From positions 62,001-126,000 of the forward strand of contig CAWJLW010000006.1 of NCBI GenBank assembly GCA_963843795.1: a stretch of DNA of 64,000 nt, given 5' to 3'. The DNA is from an uncultured bacterium (GTDB lineage Bacteria; Armatimonadota; Abditibacteriia; Abditibacteriales; Abditibacteriaceae). The translations under genes and the position numbers were made by a program. The notes under the pieces were generated by a model. The model did no database searches and was not told the DNA's origin. It worked only from the letters and a program-made list of their open reading frames with translations. Below are positions 4,181 to 19,611 of this stretch, piece by piece. Within the stretch, counting starts at the first letter, position 1; each line of letters opens with the position of its first letter.

Positions 4181-4808
4181 GAGCGTGTTCTGCACTCAGA
4201 ATAGAGTGGCGACATTTTTAAGCATGAGGTAAGCCAAAGCCAAGAAGTGTAAGCCAGCTATGGTTTGTGGCAAGCGTTCACCGCCTGAGTCAAAGCCGCT
4301 GCCTGAGAACGATCCCCTTCATTGACCGGTGTGACATGCAAAGCCAACAAGTGTCCTAACGTATCTACGGCCAGATGAACTTTGCTGCCTTTTCTGCGCT
4401 TGGCTCCATCATAGCCAGCATGACCGGCGCTCTCGGGTGTTCGCTGCAAAATGCGCGAATCCAAGATTGCTGCTGTGGGCTTGGCGTTGCGGCCAGCATA
4501 CATGCGCAGCAACTCGCGCAGGTCAGGCACCATTGCCTCGAACACTCCGGATTTAAGCCAACGCCGGGTTTGCTGATACACCGCACTCCACGGTGGCGAA
4601 TCCTGTGGCATGTAGCGCCAAGGTGCGCTGCTCCTGACCAAATAGGGCAAAGCGTTGAGGACTTCGCGCAAATCATACTCGCGCTGAGGAGAATCGGGAT
4701 CAATCAAACTTAAGTAAGGTGCTACAAACGCCCATTCTTCCTCGCTCACATCACCGGGATGACCTTTACAGGCCATACCTCTGGTTTAACAAAGTGCAGA
4801 ACACGCTC
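4181..4808 (-). mobile_element. IS5-family element, internally deleted (transposase fragment 4258-4776)
   Basis: Terminal IRs GAGCGTGTTCTGCACT / AGTGCAGAACACGCTC in a CTAG context. IS5 motifs (EEW, WRY.P.D.PPW..VY, AILDS, GYDGAKRRKG.K.H.AVDTLG); only ~630 bp long. Confidence 0.85.
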
Positions 4809-6146
4809 TAGCCATATTGAAATTCGAGTTACGCAACTCTTTGTTATCATACTATGCGTGCAAAGTGAGCCGCACTGCGCACAGCTTCGATGTCATACGC
4901 TATTTCCATGGTATTTTCTGAGCGAAGCAGCGCCAATCTGGCGTGTCTCAACGCACTGCGTGCATTTCGGCATTCTCCAAAAGGGCGAGCGTCTCCAACG
5001 CTTTTTGTAACCGCATTGCGACTTCGACAGTGCCGGCTCCGTCCCGCGCTGTGCCCATGAAGGCGTCATCAAACATATCCTGCATCAGCAAACCCGGCAC
5101 CGCAACGCGATCAAAACGAACTTCGGTGCGACTCTGTCTTACTTTGGGAGGCCCAAAGTGCGAATAGCCGCACGAGAGTGCCAATGACATCAATTGCGGT
5201 TCCAGGATCATTCACAGCGGGCGAAAGCGCACGGCTGGAGATTTCGGACAGTGCAATCAGGCCAAAGCGTGGATCTTGATCGAAAGCCCGCGCATCACCA
5301 ATTTCAAAAGCACTGATAATAGATTTCTTGTCGGAGTCAGAGATTTCAGATGACGTATCCGCGCTGACATAAGCGATTGGTCGATTTGGTGTGCAAAAAG
5401 TGCCAGGCAGCGCAGAGACGCTAATGCGCAACTGGGATTTTTCAGCAGTCGATTGTAATGCCGCAACATTAATATGTTGCACATAACCGATCGAATCTGC
5501 AAAGATTCCTCGACTCTGGCTGTCAGGTGATTGCCATGCTGTGCCTCCCAAAAGGGGAGCCGACAGCCTTCGTTCAAATGCGGCTTTGGTGGCTTCTTCC
5601 ACTTTGTCAATCGTGGTTCCCAAACGCCCGAGTCGAGCAATGCTATCCACCCAGCGCACAAAGGACACGACCACTAAAACAAACATTAAGACCGTTAGTG
5701 CAAATAAGAAAAAACGTCCTGCCTTTTCATACAAGCCATTGGTCAAAGCCACCAGCGCAACGACGCTAAAAATGAAGCCGCCAATAAAAGTCGACAGCGC
5801 ATTCTGCGAAACATCATCGGCAATGACCAAAGAAAATGAGCGGGGAGTGGCTGAACTACTAGCTGATGCATAAGCCGACACCATGGAAGCCACAGCGAAT
5901 GTGGCAATGCCCAGCATGCTGGCAGCCACGATCTTGAGGAGGGATTCGATGGAATCTTTGGAAACATCCGGGACGAGATCACCTAGGCCATAGCCATCTG
6001 CCATGTGTGCCAAAAAAACGGCACCTATCGAATGTCAACGGCGGGAGTAAAATCCCCATAACGCCGGTTGAATAATCCCCACTTGAGGCGGGCACGGAGT
6101 GCCCGCCCAATGCTGGGCTACCCTTCTATTCAAGGAAGGTGGCCTA

Positions 6147-8358
<2,212 letters not shown>

Positions 8359-8507
8359 GGAATATTAGCCCGCCCTTGACACGAAAACAGACACACAAGA
8401 AGCGGCTTGATCCATAAGCGCTCGCCGATTCGTTCCAAGAGGAACTGCATTCGATCCAGCATAAATTTTTGTCCTTTTCTGTTGTCTGTTTGTAGAGACA
8501 GACTCCA

Positions 8508-8700
8508 CTAGTGTCCTAACTTGGTAGTAACCTTGGGTAGAGTGGTTTGAGTTTGCAGCGGGCATCCTGCACACCACAGTGCCATTCGACTTGAACCTTT
8601 GCCGCCTTGCATTGGTTTTGCCACTCTGCGACTTGCCCTTCCAATTTTTGCTGAGATTCCGTACGCTCCTTGAGAGATTGACGCGCCAGCATGAAGTTGC
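8508..8700 (-). mobile_element. IS630-family 3' remnant fused to the truncated IS3 orfB
   Basis: ARQSL..R......L...V.EW......V.W....DAR.KL..LYP resembles the IS630 C-terminus; ends at GGACACTAG. Confidence 0.6.
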
Positions 8701-8730
8701 TTCGATAACGCGGACAGGTTAGCTTAGGCT

Positions 8731-9854
8731 TCCTGTTATAGACCACTTCGATGTAGTCGAACAACATCGTTCTGGCTTGGGCTCTCGTGGCGGGAATGAG
8801 GTCGCCAAAGCATTCGGTCTTAAGCGTGGCCTCTGCCTGGGGGGCACCCGGATATTCCATCATGGCGTTGTCGTAACAGTTGCCACGTCGGCTCATGCTC
8901 TGCTGGGCGCCCTGCTGAGCCAGGAGCCTCTGACACACTCGACTCGCATACTGACTTCCGCGATCCGAATGGTAGACCAAACCGCTGGTAGGCCGTCGAT
9001 TCTCGAAAGCACGTCGGGCCGCACTCAGCACCACTTCGCTTTCCAGACTCGCTGAAGTCTGCCAGCCCACCAGACGGCGGCTGTAACAGTCGAGCGTGCC
9101 CGCCAGATAAAGCCAGCCTTCACGCGTCGCAATGTAAGTGATGTCGCTGACCCACTGCAGATTGACCGTTTTGGGTGCTGGTTTGTCTCGCAATAAGTTG
9201 GGTGCGACCGGCAAAGCATGCTCGCTGTTGGTAGTGCGCGGCTGACGACGCCTTTTATGCGCAGCCCTCAGTCCCTGTTCCTTCATCAAGCGGCGGACGC
9301 GGTTTTCTCCGCAGCAGATGCCTTGTTTACGCAGCGCATCCACCAGACGTGGACTGCTGTAGATCTGGCGGTTGGCTTGAAAGATCCTCTCTACCTGCGC
9401 GTCTAGCTGCCGATCCTGTTGGCGGCGCACTCACTCATTCTTGCGGAGATGATCATAGTAGCCGCTGCGTGAGACGCCCAGGATCTGGTATAGCTGCTTG
9501 ACGCTCACCGCCTCCTGCCCCGGCTCGCGACTTCTGGCATGGAGACGTTGAATCATCTCATACCTCGAACTTGACTCGTGACCAGACTGTCCTGCCCCAG
9601 ACCGTCCTCGGCGACCTGCGGCTTGTGTTTCTTCGGCTAAAGTCAATTGGCGCTTCCATTTCCGCAGATACATTACTGTGGATGCCCAGGGTGCGGGCCA
9701 GTTGCGAGGCGCTTTGTCCGCTCTCGGTCACCATACGCACCGCATCGCGTTTAAATTCGGCGCTGTATTGCTGGCGTTCGACTGTCATTTTCCTCCTCTC
9801 GTTTCTGAACAGTTTGACTCTTATCTCACTGTCCACTTTTTGAAGGGAAGTTCA
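8731..9854 (-). mobile_element. IS3-family element, degenerate and right-truncated
   Basis: IRL TGAACTTCCC...AAAGTGGACA at 9830-9854; orfA YSAEFKRDAV; orfB WVSDITY, HSDRGSQY, GNCYDNA; frameshifts and stops. Confidence 0.85.
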
Positions 9855-10161
9855 GGGGAAAGTTCAATCATCTACTCACAATTGGCATGCACTTGGGGAC
9901 AAGGTTATGGAACCAGCTGGGACATGGCCTCAGGGCAAACGCACTACAAGAGAGCCAGAGGTGTAGCAAGTATTTGTTGAAGCAGTTTTTGATCCCACGC
10001 AACGGCTTTTCGGATGGCTTTGAGTGAGAGTTTGCCTTGATTTTGGCGCAACAGATTGAGCGTAATGCGCCGCAAAAGTGCCAGATTATAAGGTGCGTGT
10101 TCACAGCGCGTTCGGCATTTGTCTTCGGCAAAAACCATCCGCCCAGATTCTATGGTTTTCG

Positions 10162-11157
10162 TCAAGGGCTGGATTCCTGCTGGGGCTGTTGATAGACCCG
10201 CTCCGGGTCGTAAGAACCACCATGAGTGACCAGTGACCAGCATAAGCGCGCCATCTTTCGAGCCACAGCACACAGTGCCGCCGTGGAAGACAGTCCCTTC
10301 TGCCGTTCCCGTTCGTAATGGGCCTTGAAAGGTGAGTTTTTGGCACGCAGTGAAGACTGTGCACACAGGAATAGCAGACGTCGTAACTCGGCATCACCTT
10401 GTTTGGTGAGTCCGTGATTGCCGCGCTTATAGCCAGACTGCTTCACCGTAATGTCCAGCCCACAGTACGCGACGAATGAGTCACTTCGAGGAAAAGAACG
10501 TCCAGCCAAACGCGAGGAGAGGGTTGCTGCTGTCACAGGGCCGATGCCTGGCACCTTTTGCAACTCGCTCACACAGGATAAAGGAACTACAACCGAAGCC
10601 GGTTCGGCAGATTGAGCTGCAGAGGAAGTCGAAAGCTTCTCGATCTCTCGCTCGAGTTGGCGTTGCTGAGTTTTGAGCGCATCAATGGCGGGTTGTAGTG
10701 CCGCGGTGGCGTGAGGTAAGGCCCGCGACTGAGCCTGGAGCTGTTGCAGTGAAAGCACCAAACCCTTGCGAGCCTTAAGAAGTTGATCGAGCCGTTCCAC
10801 CAGAGGAGATTTTATCGGATATGGCGGCAGTTCGTGGCACAAGGCATACAAGCCTAATCCAGCGCTGTCGAGACGGTCGCACTTGGCGCGGTTCTGGATG
10901 CTTTGCAAGAAGCGTTTGGCACGCCGTGGTTCAGCCAGACGAACATCTCTCTGGGCCGCACGGGCCTGTTTGACAACATCAGTGCTATAGGAGCCAGTCG
11001 GTTCCAGTGCCCAGATACAATCCGGTGCAGTGGCTTTAAGCAAACGAGAGATGCCTTGAGGTGTGTTGGCGTAGGTGCGGCTCCATAAGGGGCGACGTGT
11101 GGTGGGTTCGAGAAGTGTGCAGTGCAATGTGTCTTTACCGACATCAATACCAAGCAT
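10162..11157 (-). CDS. IS110 DEDD recombinase/transposase, apparently intact
   Basis: GIDVGK, ALEPTG, KCDRLDS (DEDD), VPGIGP, YCGL...KQSG; RBS GGAGGA before the ATG at 11157. Confidence 0.93.
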   Translation of the reverse strand: MLGIDVGKDTLHCTLLEPTTRRPLWSRTYANTPQGISRLLKATAPDCIWALEPTGSYSTDVVKQARAAQRDVRLAEPRRAKRFLQSIQNRAKCDRLDSAGLGLYALCHELPPYPIKSPLVERLDQLLKARKGLVLSLQQLQAQSRALPHATAALQPAIDALKTQQRQLEREIEKLSTSSAAQSAEPASVVVPLSCVSELQKVPGIGPVTAATLSSRLAGRSFPRSDSFVAYCGLDITVKQSGYKRGNHGLTKQGDAELRRLLFLCAQSSLRAKNSPFKAHYERERQKGLSSTAALCAVARKMARLCWSLVTHGGSYDPERVYQQPQQESSP

Positions 11158-11194
11158 GATAAATCCTCCCTGTGGCCACTCGTGGCCATTCACC

Positions 11195-11362
11195 TCCTAC
11201 ACCCTTGTGACGCATCGGCTGTTGCCAATAACGCTCTGGCTCAGCAGCATTCTTCATCGGTAGTGAGGCGCTGTGTCAGTGATCTGGGCGAGGCTGTCAC
11301 TCTGAAGAATCAAAAGCAGCAGGGGCACCCCGACTGTCCACAGTCAACCTCACCACCGACAC
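11195..11362 (-). ncRNA. Putative IS110 bridge RNA
   Basis: Folded by eye: outer stem GUCGGUGGUGAGG/CCUCACUACCGAU; internal loop with GGGGUGCCCCU and CGCCCAGA matching the target flanks; second loop with AGAAU and ACAAG matching the donor junction. Confidence 0.75.
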
Positions 11363-12435
11363 TTAAACCATACAAACGGGCACCCGAGAACCCAATGGCA
11401 CTGGTTTTCGATGCTCCAGTGCGCACGAATCGTCTCGGCTAAGTGAGGCGCATCCGCTGCCAGACTGCTCAGGTAAAACCAACGGCTTCGGCTCACCTTT
11501 CCTGCCTTTTGTCCTGCAGTCATCCGACGCACGCGGTCAACGCACACCACACTTTGCAATCCTGGCCAGTCCGACACAACTTTAGCGCTCAATCCCAACT
11601 CTTGCCAAGAGCGACTCGTGACACGGCGTTTTTCACAGCGACCGTGATTTTGCTCAACAACTGCGGCTCTCTTGAGCTCTGCTCCTTCCAGAGAATCTTC
11701 CTTGTCAAAGGCGTCTTTGATTTGGTTGTAGAGTATGCGATGATTGGCTTTGAGGCAGAACAGGTATTCGCCTTTTTGGTCATGAACGGTGCGTGCCACG
11801 TCCTTTTGGCAGTAGGCTGCATCGCCGGTCACTACAGCACCTTCCAAGTCTAAAAGCTCGAACAATGAACTCGCCAGTAGCTTTTCACCGCCTTGAGCCG
11901 GTAATCGCTCACAGCACAGGCTCAAACGCAACTCGCTGGCGAATACGCTCACCGTTGTCAATGCACACACATTGTTCTGATGCTGCCATGTTCCACGCGC
12001 GACTTTGCCATCAATACTCAAGTGGCGCAAAGCTCCAGGACTCTGCTCGTCAGGACATTGCCACTTCTGGAGCCAACCCCACAAACATTCTTCTAAAACT
12101 TCGGGTTCTAAGCGGGCAAACACACGCGTGAAAGTGTCATGGCTGGGAATACCCGAAGCTAAAACAAAGCTCATTTCACGCTGCAAAAACTCCTGACGTC
12201 GCTGTCCAAACAAGGCAAACTCGACAAAATCGTCTGCGCCACAGAGCATTGCGCACAGCGCAATGCCCAAAATGTCGCTGAGCAGGTGCTTGGTCAGTCC
12301 AGTCTGCCGACGCGGGTCAGGAACACGAGAAAAATATTCACTCCATACGTTCATCTCAAACAGTTTGACCTACCCAAAATGTAGTGCGTTTGCCCTGGGA
12401 CATGGCCTTTGCAAAAAGCCGCTTGCGTGTAGAGG

Positions 12436-12529
12436 GAACCGCTCTGGCCTTCGAACCGCTCTGGCCTTCGAACCGCTCTGGCCTTCGAACCGCTCTGGCT
12501 TTCGAACCGCTCTGGCCTTCGAATCGCTC
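12436..12529. repeat. 17-bp tandem repeat GAACCGCTCTGGCCTTC x5.5
   Basis: Five full copies (one with C>T) plus a partial copy, no spacers, directly upstream of the kinase. Confidence 0.95.
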
Positions 12530-12543
12530 GCGTGAAGGCAGGA

Positions 12544-15084
12544 ATGATCATGAACGAATCCTCCAACAACACAAACGAGCCCTCCAACAACACAAACGCC
12601 TTGCCGAATGGCGAGGCGCGGGACCTGCTGCGGAACTCGACCCTGCAACCCTCCAACTCGGTTTTCTCGCCTCAGCTCCGTGGCGAAGAAGAGCTTCTCA
12701 AGGCCAGGCAAGCCCTAGAGGTTCGGACCGAAAAACTGTTAAATTCGTTATCGCTGCTCACTGCCGCGCTTGAATCTACCGTTGATGGGATCGTCGCTTT
12801 GGACCTTTCTGGAAAGGTCATTGCCTGCAACACTAAGTTCACACTCATCTGGCAGTTTCCAGATGAAGTTGTGCAACGCCGGGACAGCCGAGAAATGATG
12901 GCCTACGCAGCGCAACAAACTGTAGACCCCGCAGCATTTCTCCAACTCATTGAGAAGCGGCAGGCTGAGCCAGAGGTCGAGTCTTTTGATGTTGTAGAGA
13001 TGAAGGATGGCCGCACTCTTGAACGGTATGGTTTTCCTCACCTGGTCAATCAGGAGTGCGTGGGATTGGTTGTTAGCTTCCGCGACATCACCGAGCGCAA
13101 GCAGGCCGGAGCGGCCTTACACCTCAGCGAGGAAAAGTATCGGCTACTGTGGGCGACGGCCGGGGACGCTTTCGTGCTTTTCGATCATGATAATGTCATC
13201 TTGGAAGCCAATGCCTCTCTGACTACGATTTTCGGCTATGCGCCGGAGGAAGTGATCGGTCGGGAACTCTCTCTGCTGCAACCGGAACGTCTGCGCGAGC
13301 AGCATCGCCGTGGGTTGCAACGCTATTTGGAAACCGGGCATCGCACACTTAACTGGCGCGCGACTGAGGCTCTGGGATTACATCGAGATGGACGTGAAAT
13401 CCCCATTGAGATCGCCTTTAACCATCTTCACCTGGAAGGGAAAGATTTGTTTGCCGGCTTTATCCGCGATATCACCGAGCGCAAACAGACAGAACAGGGG
13501 CTCGCGGTTTTTGAGGCCATTGTTGATTCCTCTCATGATGCCATTGTGAGTAAGACACTCCAGGGTATCATCACCAGTTGGAATCGGGGAGCCGAAAGAC
13601 TTTTCGGCTATTCATCTGCCGAAATCATTGGCAAGTCCGTCCTAACGCTCATTCCGCCCGACCGCGCCGCTGAAGAACCTCACATCCTTGCCAGGCAGGC
13701 ACGTGGAGAGCGAATTGATCATTTCGAAACGGTGCGCATCAGGAAGGATGGGCAACTCATTGATGTTTCCCTGACTCTCTCGCCCATCAGAGATAGGCAG
13801 GGAAACATCATCGGTGTTTCCAAGGTCGCACGCGACATCACTGCGCGCAAGCAAGCCGAACGGGAGCGCGAAGACCTCCTGGCGCGTGAGCAGAAAGCCC
13901 GCCAAGGAGCGGAAACGGCCAACCGTCTTAAAGATGAGTTTTTAGCCACCATGTCCCATGAGTTGCGCACACCATTGACCGCCATTCTGGGGTGGGCCAA
14001 CATGATCCGCAATGGCAAAGTGAGAACTGAAGATATAGAACATGGGCTTGAGGTCATTGAACGAAACGCCCAGGTCCAGACCCAGCTTGTAAATGACATC
14101 CTGGATGTTTCCAGCATCATCACTGGAAAGTTGAGGCTGAACGTGCGTCCGGTGGAGCTATTTTTAGTGATCGAGAGCGCAGTGGAGTCAGTGCTGCCTG
14201 CGGCGCAAGCCAAAGGAATTCGGCTGCAGCGCGTGTTAGATTCCGGCACCAGCGTGGTTGCAGGAGATGTCACTCGCTTGCAACAGGTCGTCTGGAATCT
14301 GCTGATGAACGCGATTAAATTTACGCCCAAAGAGGGACGGGTGCAAATTCGGTTGGAGCGTGTCAAGTCTCACATTGAGATCATTGTTGCCGATAGTGGC
14401 ATCGGCATCAACCCTGAGATTTTGCCTTACATTTTCGATCGCTTTCGACAGGCCGATCAGTCGTCTACGCGAAATTATGGAGGATTGGGACTGGGACTGG
14501 CCATTGTGCGGCACATCGTGGAAAGTCATGGAGGCACGGTTGAAGCCGATAGTCCGGGTGAAAATCAGGGAGCGATCTTCACGGTGAAGATGCCTCTGAT
14601 GGCGACGCGCTCCGATGAAGTTCTGTCTCATAAAGTCGAAAATCGCCTGAAGCCATCTGCCAGTGATCGTGATCACTTCGAATATCTCCCGAAACTGCAA
14701 TATGTCCATGTTCTGGTTGTCGATGATGAGGAAGATGCAAGACGCTTGGTAAGAACCGTTCTTGAAAGCTGTGCGGCCAGAGTGACAGTTGCTGCCAATG
14801 CCGCCGAAGCGTTATCGGCACTAAAATCTTTGCGGCCTGACGTTCTCATCAGTGACATTGGTATGCCAAATGAAGATGGTCATTCTTTGATTCGTAAAGT
14901 ACGAGCTCTGACTCCGGAGCAAGGGGGACAGACTCCTGCCGCTGCTCTAACCGCCTATGTTAGAGTGGAAGACCGCTTGCAGATACTACGCTCCGGCTTT
15001 CAAATTCACTTGCCCAAGCCAATCGAACCCGCTGAACTGGTGGCCGTTGTGGCTAATCTCGCGAACACAAAGCCCCTTGATTGA
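12544..15084 (+). CDS. Hybrid sensor histidine kinase/response regulator with 3 PAS domains
   Basis: PAS/PAC repeats (RDITERKQ), H-box MSHELRTPL, HATPase NAIKFT/DSGIG/GGLGLGL, REC VLVVDD..SDIGMP..KP. Confidence 0.95.
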   Translation: MIMNESSNNTNEPSNNTNALPNGEARDLLRNSTLQPSNSVFSPQLRGEEELLKARQALEVRTEKLLNSLSLLTAALESTVDGIVALDLSGKVIACNTKFTLIWQFPDEVVQRRDSREMMAYAAQQTVDPAAFLQLIEKRQAEPEVESFDVVEMKDGRTLERYGFPHLVNQECVGLVVSFRDITERKQAGAALHLSEEKYRLLWATAGDAFVLFDHDNVILEANASLTTIFGYAPEEVIGRELSLLQPERLREQHRRGLQRYLETGHRTLNWRATEALGLHRDGREIPIEIAFNHLHLEGKDLFAGFIRDITERKQTEQGLAVFEAIVDSSHDAIVSKTLQGIITSWNRGAERLFGYSSAEIIGKSVLTLIPPDRAAEEPHILARQARGERIDHFETVRIRKDGQLIDVSLTLSPIRDRQGNIIGVSKVARDITARKQAEREREDLLAREQKARQGAETANRLKDEFLATMSHELRTPLTAILGWANMIRNGKVRTEDIEHGLEVIERNAQVQTQLVNDILDVSSIITGKLRLNVRPVELFLVIESAVESVLPAAQAKGIRLQRVLDSGTSVVAGDVTRLQQVVWNLLMNAIKFTPKEGRVQIRLERVKSHIEIIVADSGIGINPEILPYIFDRFRQADQSSTRNYGGLGLGLAIVRHIVESHGGTVEADSPGENQGAIFTVKMPLMATRSDEVLSHKVENRLKPSASDRDHFEYLPKLQYVHVLVVDDEEDARRLVRTVLESCAARVTVAANAAEALSALKSLRPDVLISDIGMPNEDGHSLIRKVRALTPEQGGQTPAAALTAYVRVEDRLQILRSGFQIHLPKPIEPAELVAVVANLANTKPLD

Positions 15085-18292: not shown

Positions 18293-19611
18293 TGGAACTC
18301 ACCCGCAAAAGTGGACAGTTGAAAAAGAGAAACTGGAATCACAGGAGCCATTATGGGAGTTCAACACAAACCAAGCAAACGCAAACAACCCAGCAGCGAG
18401 TTCAAACGGGAGGCAGTCCGGCTGGTGACTGCAGGCGGTCTGAGCATCGCCCAGGCCGCACGCGGTCTCGGTCTGGACGACAACATCCGCCCATTGGGCA
18501 CCCAGCCACTGGAAGAAAGAAGCCCAGCAAAACGGCCAGAACGCTTTTCCCGGTCAAGGGCATCCCCAAGATGAAGAACTGTCTCGGCTACGGCGCGAGA
18601 ATGAAGTGCTTCGCCAAGAAAGGGAGATCCTAAAAAAAGCCATCAGCATCTTCTCGCAGCCGGGCCGGTAACCAAGGAGATGCGTTATCTGTTTATCCAG
18701 CAGCATCAAGGTCAGTTTCAGATGACTGTGCTGCTGCGCGTGGCAGGCGTAACTGGCAGTGCCTTTTATCAATGGCAAAAGCGGCCAATGAGCCAGCGTG
18801 CCCAGCACAAGAAGGAGTTGGTCACCCATATCCGTGCCCTTTTTCAGGAGAACAAAGGGCGCTATGGCAGCTCCCGCATCCATCGCGATTTGCAAGCGCA
18901 GGGAATCAAGTGCAGTCAAAAGCGTGTGGCTCAAATGATGAAGGAACACAATCTGGTGGTGCGCAGGGCTCGCCGGTTTGTGGCAACCACCGATTCTGGC
19001 CATGCTTTTCCCATTGCCCAGAACCTTCTGAACCGTGAGTATCAGGTCAAAGCAGTGGCAGGACTGAACCGAGCTTGAGATGGTGACATCACTTACGTTC
19101 CTACAGATCAGGGTTGGTTATATGTGCCGGTGATTCTGGACTTGAAAAACCGCAAGGTCATCGGGTGGAGCATGAGAGACAGCCTGGAACAGACGCTGGT
19201 GCATGAAGCGTTGAAGATGGCTTTGGGACAGCGGACATCACCAGAGCGGTGCCCAACGACGTTGCTTTTTCACAGTGACCGGAGCAGCCAATACGCGGCT
19301 CATGACTATCGGGAGCGGCTTCAGAAGTTTGGCATCGTGTGCAGCATGAGCCGCAGGGGCGGATACCGTTGGCGGATTGGGACAACGCGGTAGTCGAAAG
19401 CTTCTTCGCCACCCTCAAAAAAGAGGAGGTGCATCGGGAAAACCATCTGACTCAGGAACAGGCCAAAGCCAGCCTGTTCTGTTACATCGAAATCTTCTAC
19501 AATCGAAAGCGCAGACATTCACGGGCGCCCTTCGGGCAGGGGCTACATCAGCCCACACGAATACGAAAAAGCCATGCTTAACTAATTGTCCACATTTCAG
19601 GGGGAACTCCA
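18293..19611 (+). mobile_element. IS3-family element, full-length but inactivated
   Basis: IRs TGGAACTCACCCGCAAAAGTGGACA / TGTCCACATTTCAGGGGGAACTCCA; EFKREAV orfA, A-run near 18631, orfB with TGA at 19076 and three hairpin insertions. Confidence 0.9.

Follow-up and report, generated by a model that had tools for sequence, protein, structure and literature searches.

An IS110-group insertion sequence with a predicted bridge RNA that probably targets a hairpin repeat inside an ISAs1-type element

Introduction

How did an IS110-group insertion sequence come to lie within a small hairpin repeat that itself interrupts the transposase gene of an ISAs1-type element? The question is raised by a 64,000-nucleotide stretch of DNA (the window) from an uncultured bacterium of the family Abditibacteriaceae. 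An earlier sequence-only reading had proposed that the element homes to the repeat by means of a bridge RNA encoded in its own non-coding region. According to the available text of the reports on such systems, REP targeting, hairpin targets, long right guides and natural reprogramming have already been published. A literature search, covering articles without their supplements, found nothing on the 15-mer of this repeat, on IS110 in Abditibacteriota or on bulged bridge-RNA target loops.

Results

An IS110-group element nested in an ISAs1-type transposase gene

The element spans 1,228 bp between two cores (10147..11374, minus strand, as are all features below unless noted), its ends being set by the identity of end motifs in relatives; the interval first proposed, 10137..11386, takes in flanking sequence. 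It carries a gene for a 331-aa recombinase (10162..11157) preceded by GGAGG (11169-11165). The protein has the N-terminal DEDD RuvC-like domain (PF01548) and the C-terminal domain with a catalytic serine (PF02371) that characterize the IS110 family, with Pfam scores of 67.6 and 77.8 bits, above cut-offs, and its DEDD/Ser active site is intact (D5, E52, D94, D97 and S241). Among PDB sequences it matches ISCro4 (9t56, E 6.6e-17) and IS621 (8wt6, E 1.1e-14), and its best protein relatives are metagenome proteins of at most 81% identity.

At the left junction GGGTGCCCG (11385-11377) is followed by TT (11376-11375) and by TGTATGG from 11374; at the right junction CCATAGAAT (10155-10147) is followed by CT (10146-10145) and GGGCGGAT (10144-10137). 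The left half of the target repeat, consisting of the arm GGGTGCCC, a G and the target core TT, thus occupies 11375..11385, and the donor core CT with the right half of the repeat (GGGCGG) occupies 10138..10146. All junctions, stems and guide strings listed in the sequence-only reading were located on the minus strand where it had placed them. Insertion is about a short core, with no terminal inverted repeats and no longer target duplication, as in the IS110 family. A long left end (217 bp), a short right end (15 bp after the stop codon) and the subterminal repeat CCATA/TATGG about the junction place the element in the IS110 group, as opposed to IS1111. The cores at the two ends are CT in relatives, TT and CT in the window, and AT and CT in one further locus (L101). 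It is an IS110-group insertion sequence, probably of the IS621 type. One full copy is present in the 4.3-Mb assembly (G000). Other IS110 matches in this assembly are a remnant on contig C9 and two distant IS110s on contig C4; the remnant (C9:83975-84151) derives from a second element of the same clade, with 58-66% identity, one stop codon and its ends lost.

The host is an ISAs1-type element (9931..12397; PF13808 and PF01609) with 18-bp inverted repeats (9931-9948 and 12380-12397) and an 11-bp direct repeat outside them. Its transposase gene is split by the hairpin repeat together with the IS110 element. A soil contig from sequencing run X2 crosses from 10137 to 11390 with eight other letters and carries an intact ISAs1 transposase motif, with neither the repeat nor the IS110 element. 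This uninterrupted allele shows that both are insertions and that the nesting is real, as had been proposed. The repeat adds a net 14 nt to the ISAs1 gene. That the repeat preceded the IS110 element is suggested by the targeting seen in relatives (below); no ISAs1 allele with the repeat and without the IS110 element was seen in the four sequencing runs compared. The ISAs1-type element closes a dense cluster of insertion sequences (4258-12397) that includes an IS5-type fragment, an IS21-type pair (6099-8358), an IS3-type element and the IS110 element, and just outside its end lie about five tandem copies of a 17-bp unit (12437-12530).

The intact ISAs1 allele lacks the two halves of the repeat, which border the element in the window; one could suppose from this that the IS110 clade itself wrote the repeat or left it behind as a scar, and that it was not a prior target. 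This we regard as highly improbable, and rejected it, because the repeat is abundant in genomes without a recombinase match: 84 copies in G013 (93% complete), 181 in G011 (85%), 86 in G019 (77%) and 57 in G008 (93%). Relatives with other guides, moreover, sit in other repeats.

A predicted bridge RNA in the left end

The bridge RNA is predicted at 11200..11360 from a 21-sequence alignment, pair counts and folds, with a start that would lie about 7 nt behind the -10 box described below. Its parts are an outer stem (11360-11348 with 11268-11256), a stem of CAGT (11336-11333) with ACTG (11280-11277), and two GCTG...CAGC modules (11320-11293 and 11245-11218). The putative left target guide, GGGGTGCCCCT (11321..11331), contains the 8 nt GGGTGCCC that form the 5' arm of the repeat. 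The putative right target guide, CGCCCAG (11284..11290), is the complement of the core CT plus GGGCG, and is followed at the handshake position by AT (11283-11282), which complements the last two donor bases before the core; the handshake rule is taken from the available text of PMC11208158. The candidate left donor guide is AAGAATGC (11247..11254), in which the first core position is G in the window and one other sequence and C in 19 of 21 aligned sequences. The candidate right donor guide is TCACAAG (11204..11210), of which ACAAG complements the core plus TGT. No Rfam match was found up to an E value of 1 within 9800-12600.

To estimate chance levels, the 187-nt left end was shuffled 20,000 times with its dinucleotides preserved. 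The 8-nt left-target match arose in 72 shuffles, the 7-nt right match in 294 and both together in one. The donor strings alone are at chance level (AGAAT in 2,603 and ACAAG in 3,604 of the 20,000), and the donor guides therefore rest on their conserved position in relatives. They do sit at conserved places, and the donor is invariant within the clade, so that no covariation is seen. The second GCUG...CAGC module with donor-like flanks, as first described, is accordingly in place and conserved in position, although its flanking strings would not by themselves be distinguishable from chance.

RNA folding, suggested earlier as a check, gave a divided result. The target module folds better than 200 of 200 shuffles (z -3.89), while the donor module (z -0.61; 52 of 200) and the whole 191 nt (z -1.57; 15 of 200) do not. 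The stems that were said to enclose an internal loop were located, but in the minimum-energy fold of the naked RNA this loop is partly shut by five guide-guide pairs. The two target guides pair over five bases because the arm of the repeat is nearly self-complementary, and an open target loop would, on this predicted fold, need protein. The motif CCGATG precedes both donor guides (11260-11255 and 11218-11213) and is invariant in 21 of 21 aligned RNAs, the first copy having been part of the search pattern that found the aligned relatives. It could read the CCAT/ATGG subterminal repeat with a bulge, in the manner of the discontiguous donor pairing of IS621.

Guides covary with targets across relatives

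About 40 relatives (58-62% protein identity) share the RNA scaffold and donor ends of the window element and carry six other guide sets. A donor-loop pattern search gave 15 loci in genome contigs and 24 in metagenomes, and a recombinase protein match was found in 17 of 41 related genomes, with close matches (56-82%) in G003, G005, G014, G016 and G017. Judging from the genome-contig loci for which a taxon is given, the hosts of the relatives probably belong to the Abditibacteriaceae/Abditibacteriales. A genome-contig search for related loci returned 183 pattern matches, none of them confirmed; viral contigs gave 22 and 39 pattern matches, none with a recombinase; and the window-type right-junction pattern occurred among 401 genomes of the phylum only in G000 and in one match without a recombinase, with no further copy of this guide type.

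The left end T[GA]TAT, the donor guides and, where present, the right end CCATAGAAT-CT are common to all relatives. The target guides fall into types A (GGGTGCC-CT-CTGGG), B (CC(G/A)GCCC-CT-CTCCC), C (CGACCGC-CT-ACAGC), D (ATGCCC- or GCGCCC-CT-ACAGG), E (GCAGCGC-core-TGTTA) and F (CGACGCC-CT-(A/G)CGCT). Guides could be parsed in 43 of 44 loci, the left part being lost in the remaining one (L081). With the better of two RNA registers, the left guide matches at least 6 of 8 positions in 36 of 37 loci with a readable left flank (L102 fails), a count that leaves out the window, three loci with right-end/left-end junctions and two without a left end. For the right guide, 22 of the 23 loci that have a right flank reach 6 of 7 positions or more, the exception being L094. 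Since 10 copies come from one genome and 5 from another, and some records were entered twice, the loci cannot count as independent, and the six types were treated as the independent units: with one representative per type the score was 73 of 78, against a permutation mean of 39.5, and it was reached by 1 of 720 permutations. The alignment shows that target guides change while donor ends and donor guides stay constant. Guide positions thus covary with targets at the level of the clade, as the sequence-only reading would have it.

The scaffold was assessed in the 21-sequence alignment. Paired positions account for 96.0% of 479 cells, compared with 22-58% in slid controls, and two-sided changes occur in 6 of 23 scaffold pairs, a level found in 4 of 500 shuffles; these are pair counts only, drawn from the sequences that defined the structure, and related sequences can exceed shuffles without structure. 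The compensatory changes lie in the target module, whereas the donor-loop stem GCTG/CAGC never varies and is uninformative on structure. Guide-target covariation across six types and the compensatory scaffold pairs argue for bridge-RNA logic.

In a tree of 34 proteins, 24 of which carry a target label, target type changes at least eight times, and type A needs two or three changes. The window protein groups with metagenome proteins and not with type A at any supported branch, with bootstrap values that had not settled. Locus L059 (G014) has type A guides on a recombinase nested among type C elements (support 98/93), which points to independent retargeting to the same repeat or to exchange of the RNA region. 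In loci of type C (L082, L087, L089, L100, L103 and L061) and type E (L096 and L101) the RNA lies upstream of the gene and the targets are attC-like, resembling integron attC sites in the general form of the sequence; a crude attC box test found both boxes in none of 5 loci tried.

The target is a dispersed hairpin repeat

The repeat is a 15-bp hairpin, GGGTGCCC-NNN-GGGC, and resembles the small dispersed repeats of cyanobacteria. The pattern GGGYGCCC-NNN-GGGC has 1,131 matches in 24 of 27 family genomes, with up to 302 in one, and the reversed pattern has 17, which shows that the repeat is a real family. Loops of 1 or 2 nt gave 33 matches each in the 27 genomes and none in G000, and a repeat with such a loop was rejected as the true target on the strength of the 1,131 matches with 3-nt loops.

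Among relatives with the same left guide, 10 of 10 element copies in G016 sit in this repeat; of the ends retrieved from G005, all 10 right ends and all 5 left ends do so. In both genomes the hairpin repeat sits inside other palindromic repeats. Homing to the repeat, as first proposed, therefore holds for these relatives; for the window element itself it is represented by one full and one partial site.

In G000 the repeat is rare, with four exact matches and one near match besides the occupied site. Of these six, five lie within C6:38-82 kb in transposase remnants, and none has the common TCT loop. A degenerate copy is found in an IS3-type transposase frame (8834..8849), and two of the copies, which like the others in the assembly are empty, lie at 18488..18503 (loop AAT), in an IS3-type remnant that we take from its motif to be orfA, and at 19523..19538 (plus strand, loop TTC), at the end of an IS3-type orfB remnant. 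Nearly all copies in G000 lie within IS3 and ISAs1 transposase genes in a single IS-rich stretch (including C6:38472), and each copy replaces a few bases for a net gain of about 13 to 15 nt.

The left target guide is offset from the crossover

In type A elements the crossover is at the first CT of the repeat, and in the window element it is two bases further right. Its right guide has moved by the same two bases and matches the junction at 7 of 7 positions. Its left guide is identical to that of type A, and matches at 3 of 8 positions in register, 7 of 8 at a 1-nt and 8 of 8 at a 2-nt upstream offset. In 36 of 37 relatives the two guides overlap on the core of one contiguous target; in the window they do not, the in-register match of the left guide being worse than in all 37, and such an offset was found in none of 42 parsed relatives. 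The sequence-only reading had ascribed the imperfect match around the core to TT versus CT. That difference is present, but it is not the whole of the matter, as the left guide is also offset by 1-2 nt. A top-strand cut 3' of a mismatched core would be expected to leave TT at one end and CT at the other, and L101 likewise shows a mismatched core, with AT. For IS621, the available text of PMC11208158 reports that TT, AT and GT cores support recombination and that top strands are cut 3' of the core.

A contig from run X3 has the right end of the element, 56 nt without a difference, joined through CT-GGGC to an unrelated flank (right guide 6 of 7); this flank, the one side of the site that is covered, shows GGGC and no sure repeat. 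The second insertion site, examined as the sequence-only reading had suggested, thus shows a right-guide match only, while the relatives follow their guides. In run X5 a relative about 93% alike is shorter by 2 nt at its left junction. Three soil runs from a single study contain near-identical copies, among which at least one other flank is represented.

A plausible account, which we hold with limited confidence, is that the guide is half retuned or drifting: the right guide has slipped by 2 nt, the left lags behind, the right guide directed an imperfect insertion that was tolerated at this site, and the element works poorly. The available text on IS621 off-targets indicates that insertions are tolerated. 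The right-guide match at the X3 site, the single copy and the donor-guide mismatch fit this account, and with at least eight changes of target type on the tree in-between states are expected. A perfect 8-nt match just left of the crossover is unlikely by chance, however (72 of 20,000), and the near-identical copies in three soil runs, at least one with another flank, also speak against it.

A second account is more doubtful. The two target guides could be deliberately out of step and spaced apart on the DNA, reading the arms of the hairpin and skipping 1-2 variable loop bases, which would be bulged or taken up in a longer cut stagger. The invariant 5' arm would then be held by the left guide, and the 3' arm together with the last loop base by the right guide, which would let the element accept copies of the repeat whatever their loop. 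If the RNA is read in the shifted register of type D and one DNA base is bulged, a full match to the common form of the repeat is obtained, which corresponds to the variable position (N) in the target form first proposed. Right guide and crossover are shifted by 2 nt relative to relatives in the same repeat while the left guide is not, and at the X3 site the right register is unchanged. Read as one contiguous target, the guides specify a sequence that is no repeat (33 + 33 versus 1,131 matches), G000 has no copy with the common TCT loop, and the shorter X5 junction is what a staggered crossover resolved on the other strand would give. Against this, there is one full site only, an ordinary register would account for the X5 junction as well, none of 42 parsed relatives shares the offset, and a single copy is hardly what one would expect of a guide suited to broad use.

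An in-register insertion into a target shorter by 2 nt, with 2 nt gained later at the left junction by mutation or assembly error, is improbable. Removing 2 nt does put both guides in register, and the four runs compared gave no independent sequence across the left junction of the window; yet the present flanks rebuild the repeat with a standard 3-nt loop, and the shorter form is not a repeat family.

A putative promoter across the circle junction

A -10 box (TATGGT, 11367..11372) and a -35 box (TTGACG, 10160..10165, overlapping the stop codon) were computed for opposite ends of the element. Joined with a 17-bp spacer they resemble a sigma70 promoter that would form only across a circle junction, as the available text of PMC11208160 describes for IS621. 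Right-end/left-end junctions are found in 3 of 24 metagenome loci of relatives (L085, L088 and L090), where the right end runs directly into the left end and represents an excised circle, tandem copies or a collapsed repeat. No such junction is among the joints listed for the window element in the four DNA sequencing runs.

Discussion

We consider an IS621-type bridge RNA that targets the hairpin repeat to be the probable explanation of this locus as a whole. Excision would join the right end to the left end across the CT core, and the joined ends would build a promoter from which a two-loop bridge RNA is made. The donor loop would read the element's own junction and the target loop the repeat, which would already have been in place in the ISAs1 gene (net +14 nt). 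The recombinase would have cut the top strand of the target after the last loop base, with a core of TT here and CT in the commonest form of the repeat, so that the left junction kept the TT of the target and the right junction received the CT of the donor. We infer RNA production, the activity of this copy and the order of repeat and IS110 insertion, as well as the strand mechanics, which are carried over from IS621. Several points weigh against this explanation: the left guide matches 3 of 8 positions in register and one full site is known, the element has a single copy and other repeat copies in the genome are empty, its left donor guide carries G at a position that is C in 19 of 21 sequences, the relatives' loci lack independence and the donor-loop stem is invariant.

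The likeness to IS621, as far as the available text of PMC11208160 and PMC11208158 and the structure 8wt6 go, extends to a DEDD plus Ser241 recombinase, a long left and a short right end, the CT core, an ATA/TAT subterminal repeat, a putative circle-junction promoter, a target loop before the donor loop, a same-sense left guide and a complementary right guide, AU at the handshake position of the target loop, and insertion into a dispersed palindromic repeat. Unlike IS621, the window element has a distant protein (E 1.1e-14), another repeat and a left guide 1-2 nt off the crossover; no separate 5' stem-loop was seen in its RNA, where the target loop lies inside a long outer stem; and its right guide has 7 nt, described in the accessible text as a known long form. 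Judged from sequence, the element would work like IS621 save for the contiguous overlap of the two guides on the core. The 'discontiguous' pairing of Durrant et al. (PMC11208160) concerns, in the text available, the donor guide.

ISCro4 (PDB 9t56) and ISPpu10 (bioRxiv 10.64898/2026.03.19.712850) belong, like the window element, to the IS110 group, and for ISPpu10 the insertion site is a CT core in a REP target that has a stem-loop. In contrast to what the available text gives for these two, the window element crosses over within the hairpin loop, and its guides read the two arms. The seekRNA systems ISEc21, ISEc11/ISXne4, ISKpn4 and ISPa11 (PMC11187229) also have an RNA from the non-coding region that matches both target strands, natural reprogramming between related elements, and REP and attC targets. 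In the accessible part of that report, however, the attC- and REP-targeting examples are IS1111-type with the RNA downstream, whereas in the window clade it lies upstream, and seven guide sets occur on one donor end.

The clade offers a natural set in which one donor end and one RNA scaffold serve seven target sites, with recombinases about 60% alike. Three hairpin repeats and attC-like sites are among these targets, and one repeat is used in two registers. Such a set would help in working out the rules that guides follow and could supply compact recombinases. Should the offset prove functional, the spacing of targets in bridge systems would be more flexible than in the IS621 model, which bears on off-target prediction and design. 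If loop bases are indeed skipped, the contiguous-target rule of IS621 would be broken by a recombinase with wildcard positions beside the core, and should a longer stagger be the means, one event would yield products of two kinds, whose junctions differ in position by 2 nt. For the biology of these genomes, a 15-bp repeat that lands in transposase genes itself serves as a landing site.
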